From Enterobacteriaceae bacterium (GTDB lineage Bacteria > Pseudomonadota > Gammaproteobacteria > Enterobacterales > Enterobacteriaceae), in contig CABIZV010000004.1 in assembly GCA_902363335.1 (NCBI GenBank), positions 411,941 to 443,940 of the forward strand: a stretch of DNA of 32,000 nt, in the 5' to 3' direction. Shown piece after piece: positions 1-29,319 of the stretch (its first letter is position 1; each line of letters opens with the position of its first letter). A program made the translations under genes and the position numbers. Under the pieces are notes generated by a model. It was not told the DNA's origin. It searched no databases and was given only the letters and a program-made list of their open reading frames with translations.

Positions 1-919
1 GCACTAAAGTCCGTGCCAGCGTGTCCGCAACCAGTAACAGGCTGGCACCGGCAAGCGTTGAACACGGTAGCAGCCAGCGGTGATCGGCACCGATGGTCAT
101 GCGGATAAGATGCGGGACAACAAGGCCAATAAAGCCAATAACCCCGCTCACTGACACGGCCGCCCCCACCAGAAGTGAGCTCAGCAGCAGGAGTTGCTGG
201 CGCTTACGTTTGACGTTAACGCCGAGGTAGTGTGCTTCTTCATCGCCAAGCTGAAGAAGATTTAAGGTATTTGCCAGCCAGCCGGTGACAACCATGGCTG
301 GAAGGGCAAAGGAGGTGGCGACCAGCAGCGTCGGCCATTGCGCTTGTCCGAGGCTGCCCATCATCCACAGCGTCAGCTGCCGCAGCTGCTGCTCGTCGCC
401 CACATAGCTCAGCACTCCGATTGCGGCGCCGCATAGGGCGTTAATGGCGATACCGGCAAGCAGAAGCTGCATCATTCCGCCGTGGGTATGACGCAGGCTA
501 ATCAGGAAAATCACCGCGCAGACCACCAGGCTGCCCACTACTGCGAAAATCATCTGTTCATACAGCAGGAAAACCGCCGGCAGCGAAATGGGAAAAACGA
601 TCGCCACACCAACCATCAGCGCAGAACCGCTGCTGACGCCAAGCAGGCCGGGGTCGGCCATGGGATTACGAAACAGCCCTTGCATAATCACGCCCGCCGT
701 TGCCAGCGCGCCGCCGACCAGCACCGCCAACAGGACTCGCGGGAGGCGAATGTTGACCCAGATATCGAAATATTGGGCGTCCCGTAAAGAAGCGAAGCTA
801 ATTTTGAGCGCACCCTGACTGGCGCCAACCAGCACAAGCGTCGCCAGTATTAATAGCAGGCCAATAAAAACGCTCAAGGAAGATAGAGAATCCTTAAACA
901 CGCAAATCTCCAAAGACAT
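1..919 (-). CDS. chuU: Hemin ABC transporter permease (FecCD/BtuC family); 3' end cut by the window edge
   Basis: The minus-strand frame is open from the ATG at 919 to position 1. It is absent from the ORF track because no stop lies in the window. My translation reads MSLEICVFKDSLSSLSVFIGLLLILATLVLVG...RLPRVLLAVLVGGALATAGVIMQGLFRNPMADPGLLGVSSG...IGFIGLVVPHLIRMTIGADHRWLLPCSTLAGASLLLVADTLARTL, typical of FecCD-type permeases. It follows chuY as in chuTWXYU operons. Confidence 0.88.
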   Translation of the reverse strand, partial: MSLEICVFKDSLSSLSVFIGLLLILATLVLVGASQGALKISFASLRDAQYFDIWVNIRLPRVLLAVLVGGALATAGVIMQGLFRNPMADPGLLGVSSGSALMVGVAIVFPISLPAVFLLYEQMIFAVVGSLVVCAVIFLISLRHTHGGMMQLLLAGIAINALCGAAIGVLSYVGDEQQLRQLTLWMMGSLGQAQWPTLLVATSFALPAMVVTGWLANTLNLLQLGDEEAHYLGVNVKRKRQQLLLLSSLLVGAAVSVSGVIGFIGLVVPHLIRMTIGADHRWLLPCSTLAGASLLLVADTLARTLV

Positions 920-953
920 CGTTGCGACGCCGTTTGCCAGCGCCGCATGGGGA

Positions 954-1577
954 TCAGACTGGTTTAAGCTCAGGCTCAACCAGGCTATAAACCTGCTGGT
1001 TAAGCGCCGGGGCGCTCGCCAGCGCCTGAATGTGCGCGGCGACGTCAGCGCGCTGCACAAAACCGTGCACTTCCTGCTGCTGGATGCGCTGCGCTTTACC
1101 GCTGGCCTCGCCGTTCTGCAAGCCACCAGGTCGGAGGATGGCGAAGTCCAGCGTGCTGGTTTGCAGCCAGCTTTCCGCCAGCGATTTTTCTCTGACGGCC
1201 CGGCCAAACGCGGCTTTCGCGCGCGCCGACAGGAATGGCCAGCTATCGCCGCAGCCTAACGAGGTGACGAGGATCATGCGGCTGATACCCGCTTTTTCTG
1301 CCTCATCGATAACCGTGCGATGCGCCAGATAATCCTGTGCGCCGCCCATGGTGGAGATAACGGTAGCCGCCGTTCCCGCAGCCTGGCAGGCCTGGGCGAC
1401 GATATGGCTGTCGCAGGCGTCACCGATAAAGACATCGACGCCTTTGGCCTTTAGGCGTGCGGCTGCTTCGAGATGACGCACCAGCGCCACCACCGGACGG
1501 TTTTCGGCCAGCGCCAGCTCCACGGTTAATGCGCCGACACCGTTGCCGCCCGCGCCAAAAATCAACCACGGGCTCAT
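954..1577 (-). CDS. chuY: NAD(P)-binding Rossmann protein, ChuY-type anaerobilin reductase
   Basis: 207-aa ORF with an N-terminal GAGGNGVG dinucleotide-binding motif. Its start overlaps the chuX stop (ATGA at 1577). Its position after chuX matches chu/shu loci. Confidence 0.8.
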   Translation of the reverse strand: MSPWLIFGAGGNGVGALTVELALAENRPVVALVRHLEAAARLKAKGVDVFIGDACDSHIVAQACQAAGTAATVISTMGGAQDYLAHRTVIDEAEKAGISRMILVTSLGCGDSWPFLSARAKAAFGRAVREKSLAESWLQTSTLDFAILRPGGLQNGEASGKAQRIQQQEVHGFVQRADVAAHIQALASAPALNQQVYSLVEPELKPV

Positions 1578-2074
1578 CAGGCATCTCCTTTCAGCACGGC
1601 TGCCAATGTGCGGAAGGCATCAACCTGTTCACCCAGCAGTTGGCGATGGTCATCGCGGCCGAGGAAGATTTTAAACATCGCGCTTCCGGCGGCGTTAAAG
1701 AACAGGATTGAGGCCGTGTCCATCGCCATAAATTTGCGCTCTACCAGCGCGATGTGGGTGCAGTTTTCCGCTTTGATGTGCCCGGTCATGCCTTTTTTAC
1801 CGCGCAGGTTAAAGTAACCGTGGCGATGGAAGCCGGATGGCAGTTCGCCGGTAAATTCCAGAATCACGTCAGCGGAATGCACAAGTGTCGTCACTTTGCC
1901 CCACTCGCAAACGGTATCCCAGACGAGGTCGAATTTGTCGCCCGTCACAAGCGTATGGGAAGGCAGATTTTTGACCACCTCCAGCAGCGTGGTGTTGTAC
2001 TGTCCGGCGATAGCTTCCAGCGTGCCGTCCGGCTCAGTTTTTAAAAATTCAGCTAAGGAAACGTTGCTCATCAT
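1577..2074 (-). CDS. chuX: Heme utilization cytosolic carrier protein ChuX/HutX
   Basis: 165 aa. Strings such as EFLKTEPDGTLE, QYNTTLLEVV, VWDTVCEWG, GELPSGFHRHGYFNLRG, HIKAENCTHIAL and KIFLGRDDHRQLL match my recollection of E. coli ChuX almost residue for residue. Confidence 0.9.
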   Translation of the reverse strand: MMSNVSLAEFLKTEPDGTLEAIAGQYNTTLLEVVKNLPSHTLVTGDKFDLVWDTVCEWGKVTTLVHSADVILEFTGELPSGFHRHGYFNLRGKKGMTGHIKAENCTHIALVERKFMAMDTASILFFNAAGSAMFKIFLGRDDHRQLLGEQVDAFRTLAAVLKGDA

Positions 2075-2083
2075 GAACTCCTG

Positions 2084-9291: not shown

Positions 9292-9504
9292 TTACCCGGG
9301 ATGGCTACGTAATTGCTGGTGTAATTCCAATAAAGCCGTCGATTCTGCTAACCGGTCACGTGCATAGCGAAGCTCAATATTCAACCGGTCATTACCACCG
9401 AGTTGGTGAAGAGTCTCGAGCTTCTGAAGATGCTCAGGCGTGGCGGCGATTGGTTTATTAACCACAATGGCGGATACGTTACCTGGCGATATGGCTTCAA
9501 GCAC
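9292..9504 (-). CDS. Orphan 70-aa GC-rich ORF; possible gene fragment of unknown function
   Basis: The ORF has a GTG start with no visible Shine-Dalgarno, and an in-frame TAG lies two codons upstream. I cannot assign a family. Confidence 0.2.
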   Translation of the reverse strand: MLEAISPGNVSAIVVNKPIAATPEHLQKLETLHQLGGNDRLNIELRYARDRLAESTALLELHQQLRSHPG

Positions 9505-9552: not shown

Positions 9553-9646
9553 ACAAAAAAGCCCGCAAGGCTTGCGCCGTACGGGCTTTCAGGACTTCAT
9601 CGGATGACTCTGGTAATCACCGATGGAGAATTTTGGTGGGCTGGGG
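9553..9646. repeat. Left copy of the 94-bp imperfect direct repeat bounding the P4-like element (att site); identical 22-bp core at 9625-9646
   Basis: It aligns colinearly with 21318-21411. The core ggagaattttggtgggctgggg is identical in both copies. Homology stops exactly at both ends of the 94 bp. Confidence 0.85.
9555..9590 (-). terminator. Rho-independent terminator (minus sense) inside the repeat
   Basis: The minus strand reads GCCCGUACGGC-GCAA-GCCUUGCGGGC followed by UUUUUU. This is a GC stem with a GNRA loop and a U-run. Confidence 0.7.
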
Positions 9647-9713
9647 GAGTCTGACTTTGACTGTTAATTGTTTGTATTTAATGGTTTTTTTATTGATTTG
9701 AAATTTTAGATAT

Positions 9714-9732
9714 ACCTAAGCGTATACCAATT
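9714..9732 (+). repeat. Putative integrase arm-type site ACCTAAGCGTATACCAATT
   Basis: The same 19-mer with one mismatch recurs at 21248-21266. An inverted copy with a 2-nt insertion lies at 21211-21231. All copies lie just inside the element ends. Confidence 0.6.
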
Positions 9733-9848
9733 CTGCTTTGTAGGCACAAAAATACAGTCATGCTGGTATGACAATTCCAACCCCATCACGACTTGTATCC
9801 ATCTGGTCACACATGACAAAAGCAGGCAATCAACACTAAGAATTTACT

Positions 9849-10508
9849 TTACGACTCTTCGCTATTGGGGTTCTTAACTTTTTCCCATTCAATGCCCAAC
9901 CCTTTAAATTTTTGTGCAAATGGGATTACTATGAGCGCAACACAAGCCCCTAATAGAGCCATTCTCTCAGTGGTTAAAAAATTAAATCTTATATCTGCAA
10001 TTACTATAAGTAATAAGGCTACAGCAAGAGACCAAGTAACTCGTTGAAAAATATCCATCGTTTCAGATTTTTTCTGACGAATATCATTTTTCCTAACTGC
10101 TGACTGCTCCGCGGTAAGGGCTCGGAAAGTTGGGAAAAGACTGAAATCAGATTTAACTAAAGCACCTGAATCACTGACTGAATATAGTGAAAATGGCAAT
10201 GGGTTATTAGGCTGGGAGGATACAGTCACCAAGAAAAGTGGGATTTTTTCATTTCCAATTGCTTGTTTGTATTTTTTTAATTGATTTAGGTTTTTTTCGC
10301 TATGTGCAAATCTGTCTGACTTTATTTCAATAATGGCAAGATATTCTTTCTTTTCTGGATCTATAATTGCAAAGTCTGGTCTGTGTGTGTTTTTACCATC
10401 GTTGGAGAAAAATGCAGGTTCGTATAATATAGAATCTTTGGTATATCCTAGTGATAATAAGTATTCAGAGAATTTATTTTCCGCCTCTGAATGGTAATTG
10501 TTGTCCAT
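9849..10508 (-). CDS. Membrane-anchored HsdR_N-like / PD-(D/E)xK nuclease-fold protein (satellite cargo)
   Basis: 219 aa. The N-terminal half has the layout E(x)n...RPDFAII...LAIIEIKS...QLKKY, as in type I restriction enzyme HsdR N-terminal-like domains. The C-terminus has two hydrophobic helices (VTWSLAVALLLIVIADI and MALLGACVALIVIPFA). The gene is AT-rich. Confidence 0.6.
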   Translation of the reverse strand: MDNNYHSEAENKFSEYLLSLGYTKDSILYEPAFFSNDGKNTHRPDFAIIDPEKKEYLAIIEIKSDRFAHSEKNLNQLKKYKQAIGNEKIPLFLVTVSSQPNNPLPFSLYSVSDSGALVKSDFSLFPTFRALTAEQSAVRKNDIRQKKSETMDIFQRVTWSLAVALLLIVIADIRFNFLTTERMALLGACVALIVIPFAQKFKGLGIEWEKVKNPNSEES

Positions 10509-10703
10509 TACAGTCCCTCTCTGCTGTGTGAAAACTAGTAAGCTAAACTAGTAAGGTAACTAAGATAAGCAAGAGATTCAATTGATTAACGGGGAATAGG
10601 TCAAGTCAAGGTCAAACTCGGCGATCATGATGGTTATCTTGTTGAATCACAGCCAGACATGATGAATTTCTAGGTTGGAGAAAAAACTTTTTTTCAGGAA
10701 AAC

Positions 10704-10794
10704 TGTTCACACTGTTCACTCACCATTATTTTTATTATTTTTCAACATGATACACGGTGAATAGTCCGTGAACAGTGAACACTTTACTGTTCAC
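10704..10794. repeat. crr-like iteron cluster (TGTTCAC/GTGAACA octamer-type repeats)
   Basis: Six copies in both orientations, one degenerate: 10704, 10713, 10756, 10768, 10775, 10788. The motif equals the P4 type I repeat TGTTCACC bound by alpha protein. The cluster lies just downstream of alpha, as P4 crr does. Confidence 0.75.
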
Positions 10795-10811
10795 GCTCAG
10801 GGATTTCAGGC

Positions 10812-10836
10812 AAAAAAAGACCGGCTAATGCCGGTC
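10812..10836 (-). terminator. Rho-independent terminator after alpha
   Basis: The minus strand reads GACCGGC-AUUA-GCCGGUC followed by UUUUUUU, 9 bp after the alpha stop. Confidence 0.8.
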
Positions 10837-10844
10837 AGGATAGG

Positions 10845-13184
10845 TTATGGCGCTGTGGTTTCATCACATCGGGGCAGCCAGTCGGCGTTGCTTTCATCCC
10901 TGAGCGTGAGATTCGTCTGCATTCCCTGATTCGTTCGCCGCTTGCCATAATTCAGACCGTACTCTTTCAGCATCGATGACAGTCCTTTGCCGAACATGGT
11001 GAGGCTCAGCGTATTCTTGTAGCCGTGCGCCTCCATATAGACCAGATAGGCGTGGTACAGGTACAGGCGTGGCTGTCGCGGGATTATATTCGCGTTTCCC
11101 ATATACATACCGTCAGGCTCGGGCAGCGCCTCCAGATAGCCACAAAAATCGAATGTCGGGTCAGCATCACGCTTGATACTGAGCGCCTCGTCAGAGTTCT
11201 GCTGGGACTGGAGCAACGCGCGCGCCGTCATCGGGTCGCTGAATTTCTGCATAAGCTGGCGCACAATGACCGCCAGCTCACGGGCAATTTTATCTTTCAG
11301 CTTCGGATCACGTTCTTCCGGGGCTATCTGTTCCGGGAAGTGCATAATCACCCGGCGACGTGACACGCCGCCGCTGCGGTCAGTGAAGCGCATCGGGTTA
11401 TTGTTCACGGCCAGAATAACCGCCGGGATATGCGTTGAATACGCATCGCGGTATTTCGGGTCAACGGATACGGCATCGCCGCCGGTGATGGCCTTTAACC
11501 CCGCACCGTCGCCGCTCCATTTCTCCTGGTCAGGCAGACGTATCAGCGAGAAGCCAATCAGCGCCGCGCGTTCGCGGGGGGATTCCAGCGTTTCAATGGT
11601 CGCTGACGTGGCGTTATCCTCTCCGGCCAGCATGGTGGCAATTTCAGCCAGAATACTTTTCCCGCTGCCGCCGGGGCCGGTCACTTCAAGGAAGAGCTGC
11701 CAGTCATAACGGTTAGCCAGCACCATAAACAGCGCTGCGAGAATCACATCACGTTTATCCGCGCGTGAACCGGCGGCGCGGTTGAGCCAGCGCCAGAAGT
11801 TCGGCGCGTGGGTTTCCAGTGCTTCTCCCTCGACCGGCGGGGTAAAATCCACATCACACAGTGTACGCAGCCAGTGCGCTTTACTGTGAGGACTGAATAC
11901 GCCGGTGCTGGTATCGAGTACACCGTTTCGGAAACCTATCAGGCGGCGCGCCGGGGCGTCCTGCTGGGGAATAATCAGTTTCAGGGTATCCACCACCGAG
12001 GCAATTTTCCCCGACGAGAACGGCGCCCGCAGACGCTGGAACAGCCCGGCCACATCACGCGCAAAATCCGACGGCGGGATGATTTTCCATATCCCGGCTT
12101 CATAGCGTGACAGGAGCTGGCCGTTCGCATCCACCGCCAGCGCCTCGCCGTAATGCTCATGTACCCGCATCGCCTTTTCACTGGTGCTCATGGCGGTGAA
12201 TTCGGCCTCGCTCATGGTACTGAACGGGCTCTCTCCCGGTGGCCGGATAGCGTCATAAATCGCTTTACGCGTGGCCTCTTCACCTTTTTGCATAAACGCA
12301 TCATTCCAGTCACCGAACACCGGCGGCAGGGCGACAATGCCCTCACTGGCTTCTGCGGCCGCTGCGGCTTTTGTCTGACCGTCGCCGCTGAGGTCGCGGT
12401 CGGCAGCGAGCACAATCTGACACGCCGGGTGCTTTTGCCGGGCAAGGCTCGCCAGAGAAAGAAGGTTCACGGACGACAGCGCCACCATGACCGTTTCACC
12501 CGTCAGGTGATGCACGGTGAGTGCGGTCGCATAGCCCTCTGCTATCCACAGGCGTTTTCCGGCCTGTTTTTTCCCTTCGATGATATGACATGCTCCTTTC
12601 ACCTGACCGCCCTTCAGAGTGCGCTTGAGACCGTCAGCATTGATAAACTGAAGATTAACCAGCGCACCGGTATCGTCATAAAGCGGGACAACCACATCAC
12701 CGGCGCGGTAGGTCACGCTGCCGGTTTTATGTGTGGCCGTCAATGTCAGGCATTCCAACGCGGGAAAACCCTTGCGGGTCAGGTAGGCGTTGCCGGTCGT
12801 TGGTCGACTTTTCTCCATTAGTTTTGCGGCCAGCGCGGCCGCCGCTTTGCGGTCGGCTTCCGTTCCGGCCTCGGTGGCCGCAATCACCTCCGGGGCAACC
12901 GGCGACAGATTGCCGGTGACGGTGTTCACCTTTCCGGCAGCCTCTGAGGCCGACACGCCGAACACCTTTTCAACCAGTTTCAGCCCATCACCCGCGCCGC
13001 ACTGGTTACAGAACCACGTCCCGCGCCCCTCCTTGTCATCAAAGCGGAAACGGTCAGAGCCGCCGCATACCGGACAGGCCTGATGGCGGTTTTTAATGAC
13101 CTTCACACCCAGCGCCGGGAGAATGCGCGGCCAGTGGCCGCATGCCTGTTTTACGGTTTCCGTTACGTTCATATTCATGATCAT
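10845..13184 (-). CDS. alpha: P4 alpha-type primase-helicase replication protein
   Basis: 779 aa. It has an N-terminal zinc finger (CPVCGGSDRFRFDDKEGRGTWFCNQCG), a TOPRIM-like region and a helicase Walker A (VTGPGGSGKS). Its size is essentially that of P4 alpha. Confidence 0.92.
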   Translation of the reverse strand: MIMNMNVTETVKQACGHWPRILPALGVKVIKNRHQACPVCGGSDRFRFDDKEGRGTWFCNQCGAGDGLKLVEKVFGVSASEAAGKVNTVTGNLSPVAPEVIAATEAGTEADRKAAAALAAKLMEKSRPTTGNAYLTRKGFPALECLTLTATHKTGSVTYRAGDVVVPLYDDTGALVNLQFINADGLKRTLKGGQVKGACHIIEGKKQAGKRLWIAEGYATALTVHHLTGETVMVALSSVNLLSLASLARQKHPACQIVLAADRDLSGDGQTKAAAAAEASEGIVALPPVFGDWNDAFMQKGEEATRKAIYDAIRPPGESPFSTMSEAEFTAMSTSEKAMRVHEHYGEALAVDANGQLLSRYEAGIWKIIPPSDFARDVAGLFQRLRAPFSSGKIASVVDTLKLIIPQQDAPARRLIGFRNGVLDTSTGVFSPHSKAHWLRTLCDVDFTPPVEGEALETHAPNFWRWLNRAAGSRADKRDVILAALFMVLANRYDWQLFLEVTGPGGSGKSILAEIATMLAGEDNATSATIETLESPRERAALIGFSLIRLPDQEKWSGDGAGLKAITGGDAVSVDPKYRDAYSTHIPAVILAVNNNPMRFTDRSGGVSRRRVIMHFPEQIAPEERDPKLKDKIARELAVIVRQLMQKFSDPMTARALLQSQQNSDEALSIKRDADPTFDFCGYLEALPEPDGMYMGNANIIPRQPRLYLYHAYLVYMEAHGYKNTLSLTMFGKGLSSMLKEYGLNYGKRRTNQGMQTNLTLRDESNADWLPRCDETTAP

Positions 13185-13190
13185 TCTCCC

Positions 13191-13511
13191 TCAGTGTATT
13201 ACCGGTGATTTAATGTGACGGGCGCAAAGTTCATCCAGTACGACGAGGCCGAGAAAAGACAGTGATGGCGCGGCTTTCAGCGGGCTGGCTTCCATTAAAT
13301 CTTCCAGTAAGGCACAGGCAATCGTGCGGCCTTTATCCTCGCCATGCTGGCGCAGGTAAAAACCCTCCAGCTCGGCGGCAATAGCCCCCTCCAGCGCATC
13401 GAGAGTGAGGTGTGGGTAACGGTGCTGACGTTCACATAAAGCCAGCCATGCACAGGCCACGGCACGACGATAAAGCGCAGCGCGTAAGACGAGCGGTAAT
13501 GGCTGTTTCAT
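13191..13511 (-). CDS. P4 orf106-like small protein
   Basis: 106 aa, immediately upstream of alpha. Size and position match P4 orf106. It overlaps the preceding ORF by 4 nt. Confidence 0.6.
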
Positions 13512-13768
13512 ACGTTGCCCTCCCCGTTCAGCCAGCGTTGATTACAGCGTTCGACCACGCCGTCGAGCTGGGCGGTCATAAGATAAATCACGGAGGTAAG
13601 CTGTAACTGTTGCGCCGGATCACGACGCAATGATGTGCAGTCCTGCACCTGTACCAGCTCGCCGACAAACTGGCCGACGTTACGCAAATGTTCAAGGCAT
13701 TCGAGGTCAGCCTGACTGATGGCCGACATCCATTTATTCTGTGGTTGTTCAGTGATATTTAAATGCAT
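13508..13768 (-). CDS. Hypothetical small protein of the P4-like left operon
   Basis: 86 aa counted from the ATG at 13768, which is preceded by AGGAGA. The track ORF extends to 13813. Confidence 0.5.
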
Positions 13769-13839
13769 GATTTCGTCTCCTGAAGACGTGCGTATCCCTG
13801 TGCAGATACGCACATTTAATTTTCGTTATCGTTTTTTAA

Positions 13840-14289
13840 TTACAGATAATGGCGATAACTGTTATCCGGTTTTATTTCCGGTTCAGTCCGGAGAATATCC
13901 CACCATTTCCGCATTACCGGTGCTGACTGTCTGACGGGGATAATATCCTGCGGATAATGATTAATATTTTTATCCCGTCGTTTCTGTAATTCAGGGTCGG
14001 CAGCAATATCTTTCAGAACGATGTGACGATGTTCAGGGTTGCGCTTAAATATATCCGGGCTTTCGCAGGAAAAATCCCGTAAAAACCGGGCAAGCGGTAT
14101 TTCGACAATCCGGCTATCGGAAATAATACGAATGAGGATAGTGAATGTCCGGCGATATGGGTTCCAGACCAGCGTCGGACAGAGGTACGGCATTTCCCAC
14201 GGAATACCGTCGGCCAGAATGCCCACCACGCGCACATCAGGGAAACCGGCTGAGCAGAACAGTTCGCCCGGTTGAGGGAAATCAAACAT
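13840..14289 (-). CDS. P4 orf151-like protein
   Basis: 149 aa counted from the ATG at 14289, with GGAGG 6 nt upstream. It overlaps the upstream ORF by 8 nt. Position and size match P4 orf151. Confidence 0.6.
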   Translation of the reverse strand: MFDFPQPGELFCSAGFPDVRVVGILADGIPWEMPYLCPTLVWNPYRRTFTILIRIISDSRIVEIPLARFLRDFSCESPDIFKRNPEHRHIVLKDIAADPELQKRRDKNINHYPQDIIPVRQSAPVMRKWWDILRTEPEIKPDNSYRHYL

Positions 14290-14569
14290 GCCCCACCTCC
14301 TGCGTAGCGAGAAAATCACGGCACAGGCCTTTCGCTTTCAGTTCCTCCAGTACGTGGCTGATATCTTCATGCACATAACTCAGGATCTGCGGGGTATAAA
14401 GCTGGCTGAGTCCGTTTATTTCGTGGTGTCTTAAGTCATTGCCAAAAAAATGCAGGGTCTCACAGGCACGATTGAGTTTATGAAACGATTCGAGACTCAG
14501 GTGCTCACTGACAGCGTTAAGGTCATCACGGCGCGCTGAGACGGTCTGAACGGCATGTTGATTATGCAT
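14282..14569 (-). CDS. Epsilon-like (helper-derepression) protein candidate
   Basis: 95 aa counted from the ATG at 14569, with GGAGG 6 nt upstream. Size and position are the same as P4 epsilon. The assignment rests on synteny only. Confidence 0.45.
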
Positions 14570-15161
14570 GGCATACCTCCACAACCGGCAGACGGGCGGC
14601 AAAGGAAAGGACGTATTCACGAACCAGAGAACGGCGGGCGGTGTGTTCATCACCGGCTACGGTGCGCAGCATGCAGATACGGGGCTTACGGTCAGCACGG
14701 CGAATAGCGGCAAACACAAAGACAAATTCAGGGTGAGACGGGGTGAGGATCGTAGCCATAAGGCAACCTCCGATGGATAGCTGATAAATGCTATCGCCGG
14801 AGTTCTCACGCTCAGTGGCGATAGCCCAGACGGGGGTGAGAATACCGGCTCCATCGAGTACCGGCCAGCCCGAGGGCTGCCCCGCCTGAGCTACCATTGA
14901 CATGGCTGTGTGATATGCGATTACGGACAGGAGACACTGGGTCATACCTGCACGACTATCTGCACACCACACCATTATCTGGCGCGCTGTGGCGTTGATT
15001 GCGACACAAAAAAAGACGCATGGCGCGTCTGGTATCGCCGATGGATTGCTCGGGTTCTCACGCCCGGCTGCCGATTTTGCGGCAACGACAAAACTGTACC
15101 AGGAAACATACAACAGATGCAAGCCAGAAAAAGGGGCTGTTTGATAGCGGCTCATATTCAT
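14562..15161 (-). CDS. P4 orf199-like protein with Ash-like and Icd-like (cell division inhibitor) segments
   Basis: 199 aa. The segment [13 protein letters not shown] resembles Ash-family proteins. The segment [45 protein letters not shown] resembles Icd-like proteins annotated in P4-like elements. It has an ATGA overlap with the upstream gene. Confidence 0.65.
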
Positions 15162-15424
15162 GCATCACACTTCCTGTTGCGATGAGCAACACGTTCCATC
15201 ATCCATGCCGTGATTTCAGACTGGAGCCAGGCAACATTTTTACCACCCAGTGAGACCTGAACAGGAAAAGCATCACGGGCGATTAAATCGTAGAGCGTGG
15301 AGCGGGACAGACCGCACTGATGAATGACTTCGGGAAGGCGTAAAAAACGTTCCTGAACCGGCGCTGAAACCGCCATCAGGTGTGTACCAGTGGGGGAAGA
15401 TGGTGCTGATGAAACCGTGTGCAT
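15158..15424 (-). CDS. AlpA/Vis-family DNA-binding protein (P4 Vis-like regulator/excisionase)
   Basis: 88 aa. It carries the [49 protein letters not shown] motif typical of the AlpA/MerR-like HTH. The ATG at 15424 has GAGGT upstream. Confidence 0.85.
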
Positions 15425-15526
15425 AACGCTACCTCATTAATATCCGCAGAGATCCGAACGTATCCGTCCGGCATCAGGTAGCTCTCTATTTTGTGAATAT
15501 TTTTACTTAATGCAACAGGGCCAAAT

Positions 15527-15544
15527 TGTACAAAGCACAAGACA
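15527..15544. promoter_or_regulatory. TGT-N12-ACA dyad: candidate Delta/Ogr activator site for a leftward late promoter
   Basis: The sequence is tgt-acaaagcacaag-aca. It lies about 100 bp upstream of the vis-like gene. Confidence 0.45.
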
Positions 15545-15702
15545 ACGGGTGACGTTTTTTTACACAAGACCATTTAAAGGCGCAGGAAGGAGTTAGAAGC
15601 CACTGGAGATTTTAAAAGTGAAATGCAAATTGCTTTAATCTCTATAACAGAATTAATTAATAGGATAGAGCGCATAAAATTTACATTTATGACGTTCAGA
15701 CC

Positions 15703-15806
15703 GGTGAACAGTAGTGAACAGTTGGTGAACACTTCCCTTTCAACTGTTCACCCTTTAATTTGCTGTATTACTTATCTTTTTTCTTTTGGTGAACAGTAGT
15801 GAATAG
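15703..15806. repeat. ori-like iteron cluster (GGTGAACA/TGTTCACC repeats)
   Basis: Six copies, one degenerate: 15703, 15714, 15724, 15745 (inverted), 15788, 15799. The motif is the same as in the cluster at 10704-10794. The two clusters are about 4.9 kb apart, similar to the P4 ori/crr pair. Confidence 0.75.
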
Positions 15807-15882
15807 TTATTAGTAAAAAAACAAACAGAGAGAGGGTTTTCCAGCGACCTTTCTCTGGCAAGCCGGGTTTTTAAGTCCTGTT

Positions 15883-15900
15883 TGTGCCAGGACTGCTACA
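15883..15900 (+). promoter_or_regulatory. TGT-N12-ACA dyad: candidate Delta/Ogr-dependent Psid-like late promoter element
   Basis: The sequence is tgt-gccaggactgct-aca. Its centre is about 83 bp upstream of the sid ATG. That fits a -55 activator site with a short leader. Confidence 0.55.
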
Positions 15901-15974
15901 ACCGCAATGAATCGAGTTGTTGTCTGAGGGGCGGCAGAATGGCGTCAGGTTGAAAACACACAGAGGGCCCGACG

Positions 15975-16778
15975 ATGAAAGCAGACGTACTTACTTCAGT
16001 AATGAAAACCATTGGCAGCACACAGAATGAGACAATCCGCACGGCCATTGATATCGCACTGGATACGCTTAACGAGAAAGCGAACCAGAGCGCAGAGGCC
16101 GCAATGAATAACGCTCTTGACGCGTTCAGTCAGGCCAAATCCGCACACACGGGAAATATGCTGAAACTGAATGATATTGAGGCCGCCATTACCCGCAGCG
16201 AGAAAGAACGCCAGAACGCGCTGAATGAGAGTGCCGAAGCGGAGCAGAACTGGCGAGCCCGCTTTCGCGAACTGCGCGGCATGATGACCCCGGAACTGAA
16301 AGCGGAACATGGTCAGCGAGTGGCCGGTCGTGAGCTGGCTGAGGAGTTCACCGCCCTGATTGATGAGCTCAATGATGATAAAGCACGTACCATGCTGGCC
16401 GCCTGTACGTCAGGAAAAGAATACGTCAGCGCTCATTCAGATGTGTTCTCTGCCTATGCCCGGAATGAGTGGGCGGTGGTAATGAAAGACATTCCCCCTG
16501 CACTGGTACGCGCATTTGCTTTACGTCTGCGTGAGCTTGAGATTAAGGGGGAAGAACACCCTCACACTATTCTGATTCAGGAGCTGGGCGAGAATGTACT
16601 GACACAGAGCCAGTATTACGCATTCAACATGGAAAATGAGCCGGTGATTTCACAGATTGGCCTTCATCGCCCGGCACTCACCGGCGTAGACATGAAGCTC
16701 TTTAAAAGTCCTGCCCTCAGAATGGCGCGAGCTAAAGCGCTGGCACAGAAGAAAAAAGCGCAGGAGGTGAAGTCATGA
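15975..16778 (+). CDS. sid: Sid-like capsid size determination (external scaffold) protein
   Basis: 267 aa, helical and rich in charged residues. It is the first gene of the sid-delta-psu operon and overlaps delta via ATGA. Confidence 0.7.
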   Translation: MKADVLTSVMKTIGSTQNETIRTAIDIALDTLNEKANQSAEAAMNNALDAFSQAKSAHTGNMLKLNDIEAAITRSEKERQNALNESAEAEQNWRARFRELRGMMTPELKAEHGQRVAGRELAEEFTALIDELNDDKARTMLAACTSGKEYVSAHSDVFSAYARNEWAVVMKDIPPALVRAFALRLRELEIKGEEHPHTILIQELGENVLTQSQYYAFNMENEPVISQIGLHRPALTGVDMKLFKSPALRMARAKALAQKKKAQEVKS

Positions 16779-17017
16779 TGCGCTGTCCGTACTGCAAACA
16801 GGCTGCCCATGTTCGCACCAGTCGTTACCTGTCGGATAACGTCAAACAGAGTTATCTCCAGTGTGTGAATGTTTTCTGCTCCGCGACGTTTCGTACCATT
16901 GAGTCTATCGACGAGGTGATACGGCCACCGGCGGAGGAAAAGCCAGAACCGGCGCAGACCGCGCCAGTGACACCGCCACGAATTCTGGATAGCGCTCGCT
17001 CATCGTTGCGCCACTGA
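16775..17017 (+). CDS. delta: Ogr/Delta-family zinc-finger late transcription activator
   Basis: 80 aa. MMRCPYCKQAAHVRTSRYLSDNVKQSYLQCVNVFCSATF matches the Ogr CxxC...CxxxxC pattern (Ogr: CPLCQHAAHARTSRY...QCQNVNCSATF). Confidence 0.9.
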   Translation: MMRCPYCKQAAHVRTSRYLSDNVKQSYLQCVNVFCSATFRTIESIDEVIRPPAEEKPEPAQTAPVTPPRILDSARSSLRH

Positions 17018-17032
17018 TTCAGGAGAAAAGAA

Positions 17033-17608
17033 ATGATACGAGCACCACTGGAGCAGGCCTTTGAAACCTGTCAGAAGAATAAATCGGACTGGATGAGCAG
17101 CAAGTCAGCACTGGCACGGGCTGAAATGACGCTGAAAGAACATGAGCTCACCAGTACCCATTATGAGCCTGACGCTGTACAGGCGCTGCGTGATGATATT
17201 GACCTGAAAAAATGGGCAGTAAACCAGTCTGCCGGTCGGTATATCCGGTCACATGAGACTGTGCAGCGTATCAGTATGCGTCGTCAGCTCCACGTCTTTA
17301 TGCAGGTCAGTGGCGACGCGCTGGCCGCAGCGCTGGCACCGGAATTAATGCACCTCCGGGAGCTACCTGAAATCGTCAGGGAACGGGCTCTCGACCGGGC
17401 GGCCGCCAGCATTCGCGAAGCCCTATCGGTTCATCTGGCCAGCGGAAGAGATATTCATTATGTGCAGGATGACCGGGATATTCTGACCACTATCGGATTC
17501 CGGCCTGACAGAGCATCCAGAGAGGACAGCCGGGCAAAATATACGCCTGAGCAGTGTAAGATTTTCATGTGCCGACAGGCCACTCAGAAACGCAAAAAAT
17601 CCGCATAA
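17033..17608 (+). CDS. psu: Psu-like polarity suppression / capsid decoration protein
   Basis: 191 aa. It contains AFETCQKNK, KKWAVNQSAGRYIRSHE and LAAALAPELM, which match my recollection of P4 Psu. It is the last gene of the operon, before cos. Confidence 0.85.
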   Translation: MIRAPLEQAFETCQKNKSDWMSSKSALARAEMTLKEHELTSTHYEPDAVQALRDDIDLKKWAVNQSAGRYIRSHETVQRISMRRQLHVFMQVSGDALAAALAPELMHLRELPEIVRERALDRAAASIREALSVHLASGRDIHYVQDDRDILTTIGFRPDRASREDSRAKYTPEQCKIFMCRQATQKRKKSA

Positions 17609-17772
17609 AACGCCCCGAAAATACCCGTCTTTTTAAGAAAAATAGCGATGCATGCCTATGCTGCATGGTTTTGCATACAAAACCCTGAATTTTCCACACC
17701 CCGCCGCGCCAGCACTGGCGTGGCCTGAGCCCCTTCATCCACCTGCATTAAAAGTGCCCCACGAAGCGGGCA

Positions 17773-17791
17773 GGCGTGGCGGGGAGAGCAT
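17773..17791. other. cos cohesive-end site (P2/P4 type, variant)
   Basis: ggcgtggcggggagagcat matches the P2/P4 19-nt cohesive end GGCGAGGCGGGGAAAGCAC at 16 of 19 positions by my count. It lies between psu and the cargo slot, as in P4. Confidence 0.7.
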
Positions 17792-17982
17792 TGCGCGCCA
17801 TGTTTAATGGCGGGATAAATATCTTGAGTCATCACGCGATAGTTATTTTCTGAGTTATTAGGTCATTTGTTGAACAAAGTTATTATTTAACTCTAAATAT
17901 TGGAGTAGGGATAAAAACATGGTAATCCTTAGGTAAATATAAGGTGGAAGTTATCTGTCCAGAATTTCACGGGTAAATTAAT

Positions 17983-18015
17983 AAAGACAACAAATATGTT
18001 ATACTTGTTGTCTTT
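17983..18015. terminator. Perfect 11-bp-stem hairpin just downstream of the NACHT gene stop
   Basis: The sequence is aaagacaacaa-atatgttatac-ttgttgtcttt. It begins 12 bp past the stop at 18027. It probably insulates the cargo gene from the cos/psu region. Confidence 0.55.
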
Positions 18016-18026
18016 ATTATCTCTAT

Positions 18027-19985
18027 CTAAAATCCTTCTAGTAGTTTATTAATTCCGTTACTATCATCATGACGTATCTTATCTAATTCTTCTAGTGCTT
18101 TTCGATATTTGAGTTGCGGCGTTTTATCAAAAGATAATATTCCTGAAATTAACTTTAAATCAAAGCTCTCAGTGCAATTAAAAATATTATCGAAGTTAAC
18201 ATCTATTTTTAATTCATCTGTGTTTTTGATGGCTCGACGAACTTCGCGACCTAGATTTTCATCGTCACTGTTTAATCTATTTTCGCTGTGAAAGTATTCA
18301 GGGTTTCTTGATTTTAGAATGCTAAGAATGTAAGAAATGATAGTTTCATTTCTGGCAATGACGACCCATGTATTTCCAATGTCTGCAAAGGTTGTATTAA
18401 GATAACCATCTTTAGTGTTTAGTTCTTTAAATTCTCGGAAATCGCCGTTAATTAAATTAGAAAGTGTTGCATTCTCTACCCTTTTGGAAAACATGTAAAT
18501 TAATGACCTTCCTGGGAACAGTAGTTCAGCTTTAGAAACAACATCTTTTGGATTGCAGGCTGATTTATTTTGAATGAGTCTATCATATAGGAGGACGTAA
18601 TCTTCGAGTAGTGTTCTTATTACACTTGATCTGAATGTTGAGTAATCAATATCAGCACATAATTCAAATAGGTTTTTATGTCTGATAGATTCTTCAGTTT
18701 GATAAAGCTTAGTTAGTATTCCTCTTTGTCTCTCTTTCGTATCTCTGCAAATAAACATTGCAGCGAAGTACTCCATTAATGACTTATGAGACCATCTAAT
18801 AATTGCACCTTCCTTGACAAATAATGGAACGGTCTCAATTAAATCCTTAATGAATGAGGAAGGCGAAACTCTCATGCCAGGTATTTTTGATACAATATCA
18901 TTTATAATTATTTGCAAATCATCTTTTGTAAATTCAATACGTCCACCCTCCTTAAGACACCAAAAACCTAACCTTCTTAAAATTTGGTGAAAATCGGTAG
19001 AGTCGAGTTTTGAATATTTTTCTCGGACATACCCAAGTTCTTTAGTGAGGTCGTGGGACTCAAATAAAGCATCAAAAACTTGGCTATAAAATAGTTCTTT
19101 TTTACGGGGGATTATTGGTTTGAATTTATAAGCACAAAATAATAGCGAGACATATAAAGGAGTAGATAGGAAATCATCAAAATTACGACCTTCCTCTAAA
19201 CGCAAACCTTTTATTAATTGACTCGATATATAGCCTGTGTTGTCATATCTTCTTATTAAATCATAGGCTTGATATGTATCTAAAGGTCTAATTTTAAAAC
19301 GTGAAAAACCATAAAGTTCAGATAGGAAACTGTCATGACGTGATGTGATTATTATCTTGCTGTTCGGGAAGTTATCAGCAAAGTCTCTTAATAAAGTAAC
19401 AACTGTTGATTTAATATCTTGAGGTATTTCATCAATGCCATCGAAAAGATAAATGAAAGGAATTTCTTTAATGCACTCATTAGAAACACTTTTCCCTAGG
19501 CCAAGAAAATTTTTGATTTGTTCAGATATACTATAATCTTTTATGCGGCGCAACTCTAAATAAATGGGAATGTAATTGGTTTCTTCGATGCAGTACATTG
19601 CTATCCGCTTCATTAGGGTCGACTTACCCATTCCAGCAGAATCGGTGATAAGTATATGATTGAAAGAATTAAGTAAGTCTATTTTGTTATTAATTAGACA
19701 TTCGTAGTTGGACTTTTCGTTATCATGAAATACAGAAATTGGTTCATATATTCTTTTGAGCTCGACAGGTGTATTTTGAAAAGCTAGAGTGTTAACGAGA
19801 GAGCATTGCCCACCCATTCTAGCGAGAAAGAATTCCATTCTCTCATTAAGGAATCGTGCTGCTTTTATATCATCATAGTAACCTTTTATTCGTGAGGAAA
19901 TAATTGGTACGATTTTATTTTTAATTACCTCTTTTGCCCAAGGTAACGATGCAGCTATCATTCCTTCCAATGTTACAGGTTGCAT
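18027..19985 (-). CDS. NACHT-family STAND NTPase (bacterial NLR-related protein); candidate anti-phage defence gene
   Basis: 652 aa counted from the ATG at 19985, with AGGAGA 5 nt upstream. The track ORF starts at a TTG at 20000. Motifs are Walker A ITDSAGMGKSTLMKR, Walker B IYLFDGIDEI, sensor-1-like KIIITSRH, and a NACHT C-terminal signature RWSHKSLMEYFAAMF. The gene is AT-rich and sits in the psu-int slot. Confidence 0.8.
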   Translation of the reverse strand: MQPVTLEGMIAASLPWAKEVIKNKIVPIISSRIKGYYDDIKAARFLNERMEFFLARMGGQCSLVNTLAFQNTPVELKRIYEPISVFHDNEKSNYECLINNKIDLLNSFNHILITDSAGMGKSTLMKRIAMYCIEETNYIPIYLELRRIKDYSISEQIKNFLGLGKSVSNECIKEIPFIYLFDGIDEIPQDIKSTVVTLLRDFADNFPNSKIIITSRHDSFLSELYGFSRFKIRPLDTYQAYDLIRRYDNTGYISSQLIKGLRLEEGRNFDDFLSTPLYVSLLFCAYKFKPIIPRKKELFYSQVFDALFESHDLTKELGYVREKYSKLDSTDFHQILRRLGFWCLKEGGRIEFTKDDLQIIINDIVSKIPGMRVSPSSFIKDLIETVPLFVKEGAIIRWSHKSLMEYFAAMFICRDTKERQRGILTKLYQTEESIRHKNLFELCADIDYSTFRSSVIRTLLEDYVLLYDRLIQNKSACNPKDVVSKAELLFPGRSLIYMFSKRVENATLSNLINGDFREFKELNTKDGYLNTTFADIGNTWVVIARNETIISYILSILKSRNPEYFHSENRLNSDDENLGREVRRAIKNTDELKIDVNFDNIFNCTESFDLKLISGILSFDKTPQLKYRKALEELDKIRHDDSNGINKLLEGF

Positions 19986-20004
19986 GAGATCTCCTATCAA
20001 TATT

Positions 20005-21192
20005 TCAATTGTGGACTTTAAGTCCCCACCAATTCATTAGTTCTATTCTTGCATTTAAATATGTTGAGCGATTATAAGCTTTACGAACCTCGTTGTTATC
20101 CGAATGAGCTAACGCAGCTTCTACTACGTCACTGTTGAATCCCGCCTCATTCATAGCCGTGCTTGCTATGGATCGCAATCCATGGGCAACTAGTTTCCCA
20201 CCATAACCAATGCGCTTAAGTGCGGCATTGGCAGTCTGGCTATTCATTGGTTGTTTAGGGTCATTTCTGCTAGGAAAAACATGTTCTCGATGGGCGCTGA
20301 TTGGCTTCATTACTTCCAAAATTTCTAATGCTTGGGGAGATAAAGGTACGGTGTGCTCTCGTTTAGCCTTCATCCGTTCGGCTGGAATCGTCCAGAGCTT
20401 TGCATCGAGATCGATCTCTACCCATCTAGTACCGGAGGCCTCAGAAGGGCGCACGAGGGTTAGGAGCTGCCATTCAATTAGGCAGCGAGTCGAAACTGAG
20501 AGATTCGACATCACCAAAGAACGCATGAGTTTTGGTAATTCTTCTGGTCGTAGCGTTGGCATGTTTTGCTTTTTGGGTTTTTCAAATGCCATACCAATAC
20601 CTGACGCTGGGTTGGCATCAATCAAACCGGTGTTAACCGCATAAATCATTATCTCGTTAATACGCTGCACCAGTCGGCGTACTGTCTCGAGTGCTCCACG
20701 TGCTTTGATTGGTTCAAGGGCTTCAACCAGTGTTCGGGCTTTGATTTGCTGGACAGGAATCTCACCGATGGCAGGGAATACGTCTTTTTCGAGTGAGCGC
20801 CATATATCTTTAGCGTAATCAGGGGTAACGCTTTTGCTTTTGAGCCTGAACCAGTTAGCGGCGACAGTCGAAAAAATACTGTCCAGAGCGATTTGCTGCT
20901 GTTCCTCTGCAACTTCGGCCTGAATTTGCGGGTCGATTCCGTTGGCTAATAAGGCGAGGTAATCCGCTCTTAGCCCTCGGGCATCAGCAAGCGAAAGGGC
21001 AGGGAAGGCTCCGAGCCCCATCATTGTCCGCTGCTTTGTTGCCGGACGTTGATAACGGAAACGCCAGAGCTTTTTCCCACTGGTTTTCACTATCAGGAAA
21101 AGCCCATCGCCATCATGCAGCGTTAGATCCTTCTCTAATGCTTTAGCGCGCAGAACTTCAGTGTTGGTCAGGGGGCGTGTTGTCCGTGCCAC
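20005..21192 (-). CDS. int: P4-type tyrosine integrase
   Basis: 395 aa with a GTG start. The N-terminal arm-binding domain is LTLHDGDGLFLIVKTSGKKLWRFRY. The catalytic region has TLVRPSEA (R), HGLRSIAST (HxxR) and the LAHSDNNEVRKAYNRSTY (H...Y) motif. Confidence 0.92.
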   Translation of the reverse strand: MARTTRPLTNTEVLRAKALEKDLTLHDGDGLFLIVKTSGKKLWRFRYQRPATKQRTMMGLGAFPALSLADARGLRADYLALLANGIDPQIQAEVAEEQQQIALDSIFSTVAANWFRLKSKSVTPDYAKDIWRSLEKDVFPAIGEIPVQQIKARTLVEALEPIKARGALETVRRLVQRINEIMIYAVNTGLIDANPASGIGMAFEKPKKQNMPTLRPEELPKLMRSLVMSNLSVSTRCLIEWQLLTLVRPSEASGTRWVEIDLDAKLWTIPAERMKAKREHTVPLSPQALEILEVMKPISAHREHVFPSRNDPKQPMNSQTANAALKRIGYGGKLVAHGLRSIASTAMNEAGFNSDVVEAALAHSDNNEVRKAYNRSTYLNARIELMNWWGLKVHN

Positions 21193-21210
21193 TGTGGCCG
21201 CTCCTTCGTG

Positions 21211-21266
21211 AATTGGTATACGTTTTTAGGTCTACATCTTACCGTATACCTAAACGTATACCAATT
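21211..21266. repeat. Inverted pair of putative integrase arm-type sites
   Basis: aattggtatacgtttttaggt (21211-21231) is the reverse complement of acctaaacgtataccaatt (21248-21266), with a 2-nt insertion. It lies between the int start and the att repeat. Confidence 0.6.
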
Positions 21267-21317
21267 ATCACTGGATTCAGGCGGATCATCTCGGATGATC
21301 ATGGACAAATAACAGAT

Positions 21318-21411
21318 ACAAAAAAGCCCGCAAGGCTTACGCTTAGCGGGCTTTCAGGACTTCCTCGGACGACTCTGGTAATCGTTGAGGGAGAATTTTG
21401 GTGGGCTGGGG
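21318..21411. repeat. Right copy of the 94-bp imperfect direct repeat (att); identical core at 21390-21411
   Basis: See 9553-9646. It contains the homologous hairpin and the GC-stem/GNRA-loop/U-run terminator (minus sense). Confidence 0.85.
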
Positions 21412-21694
21412 TCCCTGTAATTAGCCATTCATTCCATTGATTTTTAATGTTATTTATACTATGAATTTTATGTGTGGTTCTAAAAAGGAACCATAAATCG
21501 TAATGGTATGGGTTATCACGATTAGCGGATTGGAGAATTGTATCAAAAGGAAACAAATTCTTCAGTTCAACTCCCTGCTAGTAGCTGAACTGCGCAAGCA
21601 GGATCTGCTTTTCACCGATTAGTGAATGCGGTAGTTTTTCAGCGAAACTGAATTCTATCCGTAGGGCAGTACCAGCATAGGTGGAGAATGGATT

Positions 21695-22540
21695 TTGAAC
21701 AACTGGTCACCAGAGCACACAAAAGACATCAAGAGTTGGTTTAAGATTGATACATATCGCAAATTTGAAGACCTCTCATTGCTCCAGTTTTACCATGAGA
21801 TATGGGCTCGTAACTTGTTCTTTAAGGAGTATCGGGAAGAGTTTGAGAGCAGAACTCTTATGGGTTACTTCTCAAAAATTTTCAGTGGCAATCCTTTTTT
21901 AATTGAAGAAGGGCAACTGGGATACATGACTCCTGCCAATAAACTTTTTCAGCCTCCCCATTTTTTTCTAACAACTCTTGATCGCCTTGCTGAAACGAGC
22001 ATCATTGCTATGCAACGCGGAGGTTTTGTTTGGGATGGTGATGACAATTATTCAATAAACAGAGATCTTCGGGAAGAATCACTTTCAGATATTATGCCAG
22101 ATCAGTTTTCACGAACAGTCATGTTCGAGATTGATTTGGCAAGTGGCACAGACGAAGAGATTGCAGAGTCGCTTAAAGCTGCATTACCGCAGTGGCGTAA
22201 AATCAAAAGTATCGAACCAGATCCTTTAGAATCAGTTCGCTTTGGGTATGGAACTATCAAGAAACTCATCAGTTATCGTGTGATACCTATGCTGGATATC
22301 CTGGTGTGGGCAGCCGTTAAAAAAATCCGTGTCTCTGACGACAGGTTATCCAGACTGCTATATACAGACGATGACGAAGAAAGCGAAATGAGGCAGTCTA
22401 GCCAAATCAAAGATACCGACAGGCCTTTGGCTCTTAAATCCTGCACAACTGACTTTATCCGACAATTCCATTACTTCATGAACAAAAATAGCCATTTGAA
22501 GCAAATGAAAGTCTCTGATGTAATGAAACTATCTGATTAG
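21695..22540 (+). CDS. Hypothetical protein (281 aa, TTG start in the track), unknown function
   Basis: Long ORF in an AT-rich region with an acidic stretch (YTDDDEESE). I recognise no motif. Confidence 0.5.
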   Translation: MNNWSPEHTKDIKSWFKIDTYRKFEDLSLLQFYHEIWARNLFFKEYREEFESRTLMGYFSKIFSGNPFLIEEGQLGYMTPANKLFQPPHFFLTTLDRLAETSIIAMQRGGFVWDGDDNYSINRDLREESLSDIMPDQFSRTVMFEIDLASGTDEEIAESLKAALPQWRKIKSIEPDPLESVRFGYGTIKKLISYRVIPMLDILVWAAVKKIRVSDDRLSRLLYTDDDEESEMRQSSQIKDTDRPLALKSCTTDFIRQFHYFMNKNSHLKQMKVSDVMKLSD

Positions 22541-23027: not shown

Positions 23028-23047
23028 TTGAACTTAGGAGTGATTTT

Positions 23048-28012: not shown

Positions 28013-28026
28013 AACAGGAGATGCAT

Positions 28027-28935: not shown

Positions 28936-28945
28936 GCAATAAAAA

Positions 28946-29312: not shown

Positions 29313-29319
29313 AAAACAA

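Follow-up and report, generated by a model that had tools for sequence, protein, structure and literature searches.

What is a small gene of low guanine-plus-cytosine (GC) content doing between the replication region and the attachment site of a P4-like satellite? The locus that raises this question lies in a 32,000-nucleotide stretch of an Enterobacteriaceae bacterium (GenBank assembly GCA_902363335.1, contig CABIZV010000004.1, positions 411,941 to 443,940 of the forward strand). The whole stretch is called the window below, and all coordinates refer to it unless a related locus (L003, L022 and so on) is named. Downstream of the gene for the alpha primase-helicase, next to the attachment (att) site, the satellite carries a cargo gene for a 219-amino-acid protein, in which a domain assigned to the PD-(D/E)xK/HsdR_N type is followed by a predicted membrane hairpin. 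We lean, with modest confidence, towards a stand-alone nuclease that would act at the inner membrane in defence against phages or other mobile DNA, both the defence role and the target being predicted from the evidence set out here.

A cargo unit between crr and att

9736-10672, minus strand: whole cargo unit, made up of leader, gene and a 113-nt tail; 36.7% GC
10509-10672, minus strand: leader of the cargo gene, with tandem 13-mers and three overlapping -35-like hexamers
9849-10508, minus strand: cargo gene, 219 amino acids, ATG start; HsdR_N-like PD-(D/E)xK domain and C-terminal membrane hairpin

The cargo gene lies downstream of alpha in the same orientation and is preceded, 7 nt upstream of its ATG, by a GAGGGA ribosome-binding site. 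Against three orthologues the ratio of nonsynonymous to synonymous substitution rates (dN/dS) is 0.17-0.21, and by this measure the open reading frame (ORF) is a real gene under purifying selection. The GC content of the unit differs from that of alpha (36.7% vs 58.6%) and is near the 33.2% of the NACHT cargo gene at the integrase end of the satellite.

The borders of the unit are visible where relatives lack it. In the cargo-less loci L034, L067 and L042, two crr repeats, the arm site and att all follow alpha within ~430-600 bp; the homology of these loci to the window ends at ~10672-10682 and picks up again at 9735. The Klebsiella pneumoniae locus L003, by comparison, matches the window from 10673 down to 9553. 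None of 68 other alpha-containing loci, taken from different species and including a Kluyvera locus with a 98%-identical alpha, has the cargo gene. It was found in 6 of 5426 complete Escherichia coli genomes, adjoining alpha in every case, while more than 700 complete E. coli genomes match only the alpha 3' end and crr. Composition and these homology breaks mark 9736-10672 as cargo that was acquired horizontally as a self-contained unit and lies between one crr unit and the att arm. P4 and the cargo-less relatives have two 120-bp crr repeats, whereas the window satellite has one crr-type unit, and the cargo seems to stand where the second repeat would be.

An earlier reading of the DNA from its letters alone (the sequence-only reading) had proposed a cargo slot at this position, and the homology breaks and the low GC content bear it out. 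The ORF, the alpha terminator, the crr iterons, the AT-rich unit and the att arm that it described are likewise all present at or near the positions it gave them.

The nuclease-like N-terminal domain

10137-10508, minus strand: nuclease-fold domain, residues 1-124 (Pfam, AlphaFold2 model, Foldseek, conservation)
10374-10376, minus strand: catalytic-motif codon, D45
10326-10328, minus strand: catalytic-motif codon, E61
10320-10322, minus strand: catalytic-motif codon, K63

A nuclease-like triad (E...PDFAII...EIK) had been picked out in the N-terminal half of the protein, and profile, structure and conservation all agree with it. Residues 19-94 match Pfam HSDR_N_2 (PF13588) at 28.5 bits against a cut-off of 25 (E = 1.7e-6), a family also matched by 32 of 100 distant members of the cargo-protein family. 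The AlphaFold2 model, built with 31 homologues, has a predicted local distance difference test score (pLDDT) of 88. Its core, residues 8-96, consists of helix 8-19, strands 27-29, 46-50 and 55-64, helix 71-84 and strand 91-96, that is, alpha-beta-beta-beta-alpha-beta, and is followed by two more strands. The best Foldseek matches in the PDB were restriction-endonuclease-fold proteins, namely 3ijm (E = 2.2e-3, probability 1.0), BpuSI, TnsA and BstEII, with Cas4 and viral endonucleases among the further matches.

Profile comparison led to the same group of enzymes. A profile of 100 distant relatives (alignment A3) matched BpuSI (E = 2.6e-4) and ST1444 (2eo0, E = 5.5e-3), and the alignments pair D45...E61-x-K63 with the catalytic-type motifs of BpuSI (aD...vEvK) and of ST1444; a shallower family profile (A1) gave no match to PDB sequences. 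Among 100 distant representatives, 23-46% identical to the query, D45 is conserved in 98%, E61 in 99% and K63 in 87%. The assignment of residues 1-124 to a PD-(D/E)xK/HsdR_N-type domain is thus supported by sequence and model, and the domain is predicted to be an active nuclease. The fold and the D...ExK motif are common to the cargo protein and to the endonuclease domains of HsdR and of the type IIG enzyme BpuSI. Unlike them, the cargo protein lacks translocase and methyltransferase modules as well as partner subunits; its domain is fused to a predicted membrane hairpin instead.

The predicted membrane module

10041-10136, minus strand: charged helical stalk, residues 125-156 (RKNDIRQKKSE...), part of the continuous model helix 128-175
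9915-10040, minus strand: two hydrophobic helices, residues 157-198 (157-175 and 183-198), with the loop RFNFLTTER (Kyte-Doolittle, model)
9873-9914, minus strand: juxtamembrane tail, residues 199-212, QKFKGLGIEWEK, near-invariant (conservation)

The two C-terminal transmembrane (TM) helices of the sequence-only reading recur in the hydropathy profile and in the model. Kyte-Doolittle windows of 19 residues give hydrophobic segments at 153-175 and 183-201, with a peak of 2.09, and both segments lie inside long helices (128-175 and 180-212) of the same pLDDT 88 model. From its positive charge the stalk would be placed in the cytoplasm. The charges that flank the hydrophobic stretch, RKNDIRQKK before it and QKFK after it, suggest an in-out-in hairpin with both ends cytoplasmic.

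Unexpectedly, conservation within the protein is highest in the membrane module. Mean column conservation is 0.95 in the tail (residues 199-210, the highest value in the protein), 0.79 in the second TM helix (TM2) and 0.74 in the loop, against 0.65 in the nuclease core. The tail carries the motif P-x3-K-x-K-x-L-G-x-E-x-E-R, in which P196, K200, K202, G205, E207, E209 and R/K210 are each at least 92% conserved in distant members (P196 99%, K200 93%, K202 93%, G205 98%, E207 99% and E209 95% of the 100 distant representatives). Selection follows the same pattern, with dN/dS of 0.09-0.17 in the C-terminal part vs 0.22-0.32 in the N-terminal domain.

Distribution and genomic contexts of the family

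A profile search with the C-terminal module alone recovered about 273 clusters at 50% identity. Their members are almost all 205-230 amino acids long and have the same layout, with the module at residues ~120-220; the shorter matches are truncated copies of the same family. The possibility that the module is a portable effector also mounted on other sensors was examined and rejected: a word search gave only truncated family copies, and because the 273 clusters share one layout, the module is not shared with other architectures. A literature search with the E. coli accession, HSDR_N_2/PF13588 and the Epona sequence found no study of the family, which appears to be undescribed.

Klebsiella, Enterobacter and E. 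coli commonly carry close relatives; one variant occurs on 860 contigs and a second on at least 1000. The cluster that holds the variant of decayed Klebsiella satellites includes a member on at least 1000 contigs. The cluster members of the distant representatives are metagenomic singletons.

In P4-like satellites the family gene follows alpha in every case. Decayed P4-like elements of Klebsiella (L092 together with L093 1-8657, L086, and L003 9020-10666) retain intact integrase, NACHT and HsdR_N-TM genes, whereas five frameshifted pieces are left of alpha, and fragments of psu and orf106. The NACHT gene of these elements shares 84% identity with window 18027-20000; in them the satellite core has decayed sooner than either cargo gene. 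Elsewhere the family gene lies beside a HEPN gene in a Tn7-like element of Pseudomonas aeruginosa, in integron-like cassette arrays (in Microbulbifer, with attC-like repeats, and in TA-rich arrays), and in islands next to STAND, CTD1-MComp1-SMC and NERD genes. The family also occurs in Pseudoalteromonas, Pseudomonas and Sulfurimonas. A tblastn search of 50,697 phage and 72,556 plasmid records gave no family match, and no conserved partner or neighbour gene was seen in the contexts examined. On these contexts, the pattern is that of a stand-alone mobile accessory gene.

The Microbulbifer array (L081 6500-13500) is a long series of small ORFs on one strand, separated by repeats with ATAACAA at the start and GCGTTA(A/T)GC at the end. 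These repeats look like the attC sites of a chromosomal integron.

The favoured reading and its rivals

A stand-alone anti-phage or anti-mobile-DNA nuclease located at the inner membrane is the reading that we favour and consider somewhat probable. A minimal PD-(D/E)xK nuclease domain (D45, E61-x-K63) would be joined by a helical stalk of ~30 residues to the hairpin and an amphipathic tail, with the N-terminal domain and the C-terminal tail both predicted on the cytoplasmic side. The nuclease would stay at the inner membrane, at a distance from the chromosome, and would act on DNA entering the cell or handled at the membrane. The hairpin and tail may position, oligomerise or gate the enzyme, beyond merely anchoring it. 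An abortive-infection or injection-sensing role, as first proposed for the protein, is plausible on its predicted architecture.

That architecture had been called unusual, and it does have precedents: with Epona and SNIPE, defence against phage has been shown for membrane-bound nucleases. Epona is a validated cassette of the Vibrio cholerae chromosomal integron, with an Mrr_cat domain and a two-TM 'holin' domain (bioRxiv 10.1101/2024.07.02.601686). Epona and the cargo protein are alike in being encoded by a single gene and in combining a nuclease domain of the PD-(D/E)xK superfamily with a two-TM domain; Epona is moreover a small mobile cassette, and the cargo-protein family is also found in integron-like arrays. 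As compared by description only, it is the closest published architecture. The two differ in that the nuclease of Epona is an Mrr_cat domain and Epona reportedly occurs almost only in V. cholerae, whereas the cargo family is HSDR_N_2-like and widespread. Mrr_cat is not among the 25 Pfam families listed, of 26 matched, for 100 family members.

SNIPE is a membrane-bound GIY-YIG nuclease that cuts phage DNA during injection, and it illustrates that confinement to the membrane can spare host DNA by location rather than by sequence (bioRxiv 10.1101/2025.11.03.685801). Its order of domains is an N-terminal single TM helix, DUF4041 and GIY-YIG; the cargo protein has the reverse order and a PD-(D/E)xK fold, and neither DUF4041 nor GIY-YIG is among its Pfam matches at E <= 10. 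SNIPE is therefore an analogue of the cargo protein, not a homologue.

Several observations weigh against the defence-nuclease reading. Active PD-(D/E)xK enzymes commonly have an acidic residue in helix 1; in this family that residue, E10, is conserved in only 46%. In a Pseudomonas subclade (P0042-45, P0048 and P0052 in alignments A1 and A3) RPDF is replaced by RPSF, which puts S45 in place of the canonical aspartate, while E61, K63 and the full C-terminal motif are kept. The uncharged cores of the two hydrophobic helices are short, at ~16-17 residues, so that a monotopic hairpin is possible instead of two full membrane spans. In SNIPE the nuclease is the most conserved part and the anchor the least, and in the cargo protein the anchor is the most conserved. 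That the membrane module exceeds the nuclease core in conservation suggests a function for this module beyond anchoring, perhaps that of the effector; neither a defence nuclease nor a membrane effector as yet explains why the tail is so unusually conserved. The databases NCBIfam, PHROGs and PADLOC-DB v2.0.0 gave no significant match for the cargo protein (best in PADLOC-DB v2.0.0: PDC-M47B, E = 0.0089, 13.7 bits). A scan of the leader (10509-10672) for sigma-70 consensus promoters passed none. Neighbouring genes point towards defence, which is suggestive and an association only, as is the presence of the gene in mobile cargo, and one context, L097, shows no defence genes.

A more specific form of the defence reading is that the family represents a new kind of single-gene immunity, in which a PD-(D/E)xK nuclease with no specificity domain would tell self from non-self solely by location or by the state of the membrane. 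We regard this as tentative and, taken whole, rather unlikely. The hairpin and the K-x-K-x-L-G-x-E-x-E-R tail would then form a sensor or gate, responding for instance to phage genome entry or to loss of membrane potential, and the gate would release or activate the nuclease. The module would have spread as a cassette via satellites, integrons and Tn7-like elements, throughout Gammaproteobacteria and into Campylobacterota.

Among the explanations that compete with a membrane-located defence nuclease, the one with the better standing makes the protein an abortive-infection effector, to which we assign a real, if minority, chance. The hairpin and amphipathic tail would oligomerise into a holin-like membrane lesion, the nuclease-fold domain would sense phage DNA or protein, and nuclease chemistry would be secondary or serve sensing only. 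Such a role would suit a protein whose C-terminal module is its most conserved and most constrained part and whose first TM helix (TM1) contains an acidic residue, D172, that is 79% conserved. It would also suit the description of Epona as a nuclease domain with a two-TM 'holin' domain (bioRxiv 10.1101/2024.07.02.601686) and the general reading of transmembrane proteins in P4/P2 hotspots as suicide effectors (PMC9122126). However, conservation of D45 and E61 at 98% or more argues that catalysis has been kept, and no similarity to holin families was found in Pfam or PHROGs even at lenient thresholds. The module also occurs on no other sensor domain in the 273 representative clusters, which would be unusual for a portable pore effector.

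An accessory role outside defence is improbable. The protein would then act in interference between satellite and helper or between satellites, in DNA processing at the membrane during satellite transfer, or as a selfish stabilisation module. The gene does adjoin replication elements (crr) and att, and its retention in decayed elements could be explained by an addiction module too. However, the family extends far outside satellites, to integron-like arrays, Tn7-like cargo, Pseudoalteromonas, Pseudomonas and Sulfurimonas, and a P4/P2-specific role therefore cannot be general; the contexts examined contain no antitoxin-like partner gene, and the lack of the gene from all 68 other alpha loci indicates that it is dispensable for satellite biology. 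Least probable by far is that the ORF is an HsdR remnant or subunit, as its database name ('type I restriction enzyme HsdR N-terminal domain-containing protein') would have it; this is refuted by the 205-230-residue length and uniform architecture across 273 clusters, by the lack of a helicase or motor domain and of hsdM or hsdS nearby in any context examined, by purifying selection and by a conserved C-terminal module of its own.

If the protein defends against phage, as the defence-nuclease reading predicts, it would be a compact (~660 bp) and easily tested addition to the short list of membrane-located nucleases. How a nuclease that lacks a specificity domain spares the host chromosome could then be studied in a second, unrelated fold, and the near-invariant membrane tail of the protein is a ready target for mutagenesis. 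One variant is common in Klebsiella, with a cluster member on at least 1000 contigs, and often lies in decayed satellites, so it may affect host range in phage therapy. The family, whose function is predicted, would make a good and cheap candidate for phage challenge.

The alpha-att slot in other P4-like elements

Seventeen other P4-like elements, each delimited by exact att repeats and integrated at ssrA, at the 3' end of tRNA-Sec (tca anticodon) or at similar sites, were compared with the window. Between the alpha stop codon and att these elements have 425-3086 bp. In four of the 17 this interval contains no substantial ORF; the other 13 have one or two ORFs, which are mutually unrelated and of 34-44% GC. 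Matches to defence models occur in 6 of the 13 occupied elements: retron type XII RT-TIR (twice), mREase_II (a type II methyl-directed restriction enzyme), HEC-07, an Argonaute-associated REase-type domain (Aga_Helical-REase-like) and the PADLOC 'Effector' endonuclease/PDC-S60. The sequence-only reading had asked whether this interval is variable or holds the same gene in all P4-like elements. With 0-2 unrelated genes across 17 elements, the interval is, on this comparison, a variable cargo slot and not a core function.

The cargo lies before crr in L061 (11467+109..660), between the two crr repeats in L022 (12334+165..2080) and after the single remaining crr unit in the window (9736-10672). 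There is therefore no single insertion point.

The slot had also been put forward as a possibly unrecognised second hotspot, a claim to novelty that does not stand: a minor primase-att defence hotspot of P4-like satellites has already been reported (PMC13586616, NAR 2026), and the alpha-att slot is therefore not new. As far as the passage on that hotspot goes, the two are alike in their position between alpha/crr and att, in their variable, low-GC contents and in carrying known defence genes. The systems named in that passage include none with the HsdR_N-membrane-hairpin architecture, and the placement of cargo before crr, between crr repeats or after a single crr unit adds detail to the hotspot as described there. 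Earlier work had covered only the psu-int hotspot (PMC9122126) or only the intervals between core genes (PMC8628076). The present comparison gives independent, sequence-level support to the recently reported primase-att hotspot.

The satellite and its integration site

9553-9646: att repeat at the alpha end, 94 nt, 88% identical to 21318-21411
9711-9732: arm-type integrase site TATACCTAAGCGTATACCAATT, 22-nt direct repeat D4; second copy at 21245-21266, 95% identical
10672-10800: single crr-type unit with five TGTTCAC iterons, at 10704, 10713, 10768, 10775 and 10788
10809-10836, minus strand: alpha intrinsic terminator; stem 10836-10819 of seven pairs (6 G-C), then T7
10845-13184, minus strand: alpha primase-helicase, 779 amino acids; Pfam Zn_Ribbon_Prim, Toprim_3, D5_N, DUF5906 and Pox_D5
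18027-20000, minus strand: cargo of the main psu-int hotspot, a NACHT/SNaCT5 STAND NTPase, 657 amino acids; Pfam domains; 33.2% GC
20005-21192, minus strand: P4-type integrase; Pfam Arm-DNA-bind_3, Phage_int_M and Phage_integrase
21318-21411: att repeat at the integrase end, partner copy of 9553-9646

The P4-like satellite is ~11.7 kb long, spans window ~9647-21317 and is delimited by the 94-nt direct repeat and the 22-nt arm-type repeat. From the alpha end its genes are alpha, DUF5375/orf106, the derepression (epsilon-type) protein, Ash, the C4/isrK immunity RNAs, a sid-like gene, psu, the NACHT/SNaCT5 cargo and the P4-type integrase. The C4 antisense RNA and isrK, the P4-type immunity RNA region, were located by Rfam at 14814-14901 and 15009-15086 (minus strand), inside or overlapping the Ash ORF. 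The NACHT/SNaCT5 protein (18027-20000) is a bacterial NLR-like protein, for which PADLOC gave a weak Avs2 match only.

The repeat 9553-9646 contains the last ~19 nt of an ssrA-like 3' end with its downstream terminator and matches the ssrA 3' end and flank of K. pneumoniae (L003 5437-5540) at 95% identity. In the related loci L034, L022, L032 and L003 a transfer-messenger RNA (tmRNA) gene adjoins int, and TATACCTAAGCGTATACCAATT also edges the alpha-att interval in L022, L032, L034 and L067. These matches identify the 3' flank of ssrA as the integration site of the P4-like satellite at window ~9647-21317. A tRNA gene within the window as the att site was ruled out, since a scan of the window found no tRNA or tmRNA gene; the window lacks the tmRNA gene because a second island separates the satellite from ssrA.

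The heptamer TGTTCAC occurs 14 times in the whole window vs 3.6 expected, a count that none of 100 shuffles reached, and five copies besides those of crr lie at ori (~15704-15795). The crr unit aligns with both crr repeats of L034, L067 and L022, and its iteron orientation (++--+) is that of one 120-bp crr repeat of P4. The terminator at 10809-10836 is the counterpart of P4 t-alpha. In L003 a large internal deletion, from psu to crr, ends at L003 9836, within 1-2 bases of the crr/cargo junction at window 10673; this may be a coincidence or may mark a recombination-prone junction.

The leader of the cargo gene

Short direct repeats had been noticed in the leader and suggested as operator sites. 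The repeats exist: the tandem 13-mer AAACTAGTAAG(C/G)T lies at 10532-10557 and the gtcaag-type repeats gtcaagtcaaggtcaa at 10600-10615. On the coding strand the gtcaagtcaaggtcaa region would read as three overlapping TTGAC(C/T) hexamers (10599-10615, minus) resembling -35 elements; the sole nearby minus-strand match of the sigma-70 scan is inside crr, at 10761-10734. The leader is kept in the E. coli and K. pneumoniae orthologues, but their two 13-mer copies have diverged independently. An 81%-identical Klebsiella orthologue has an unrelated, longer leader with only the ribosome-binding region in common. Because the 13-mers diverged in orthologues and the leader of this Klebsiella variant is unrelated, the operator idea finds little support and was set aside.

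Neighbouring features

Immediately beyond the att repeat, before a TetR/MFS gene pair is reached, comes a 70-amino-acid ORF (9292-9504, minus strand) that matches no NCBIfam entry. At the integrase end the ssrA site holds a second island, directly adjoining the satellite, in window 21412-32000. It contains a gene for a DUF6387 protein (21695-22540), three consecutive tyrosine recombinases (23642-28012) and a MobA/VirD2 relaxase (30245-31453), within which a (GCAGGA)n repeat extends over 30525-30619.

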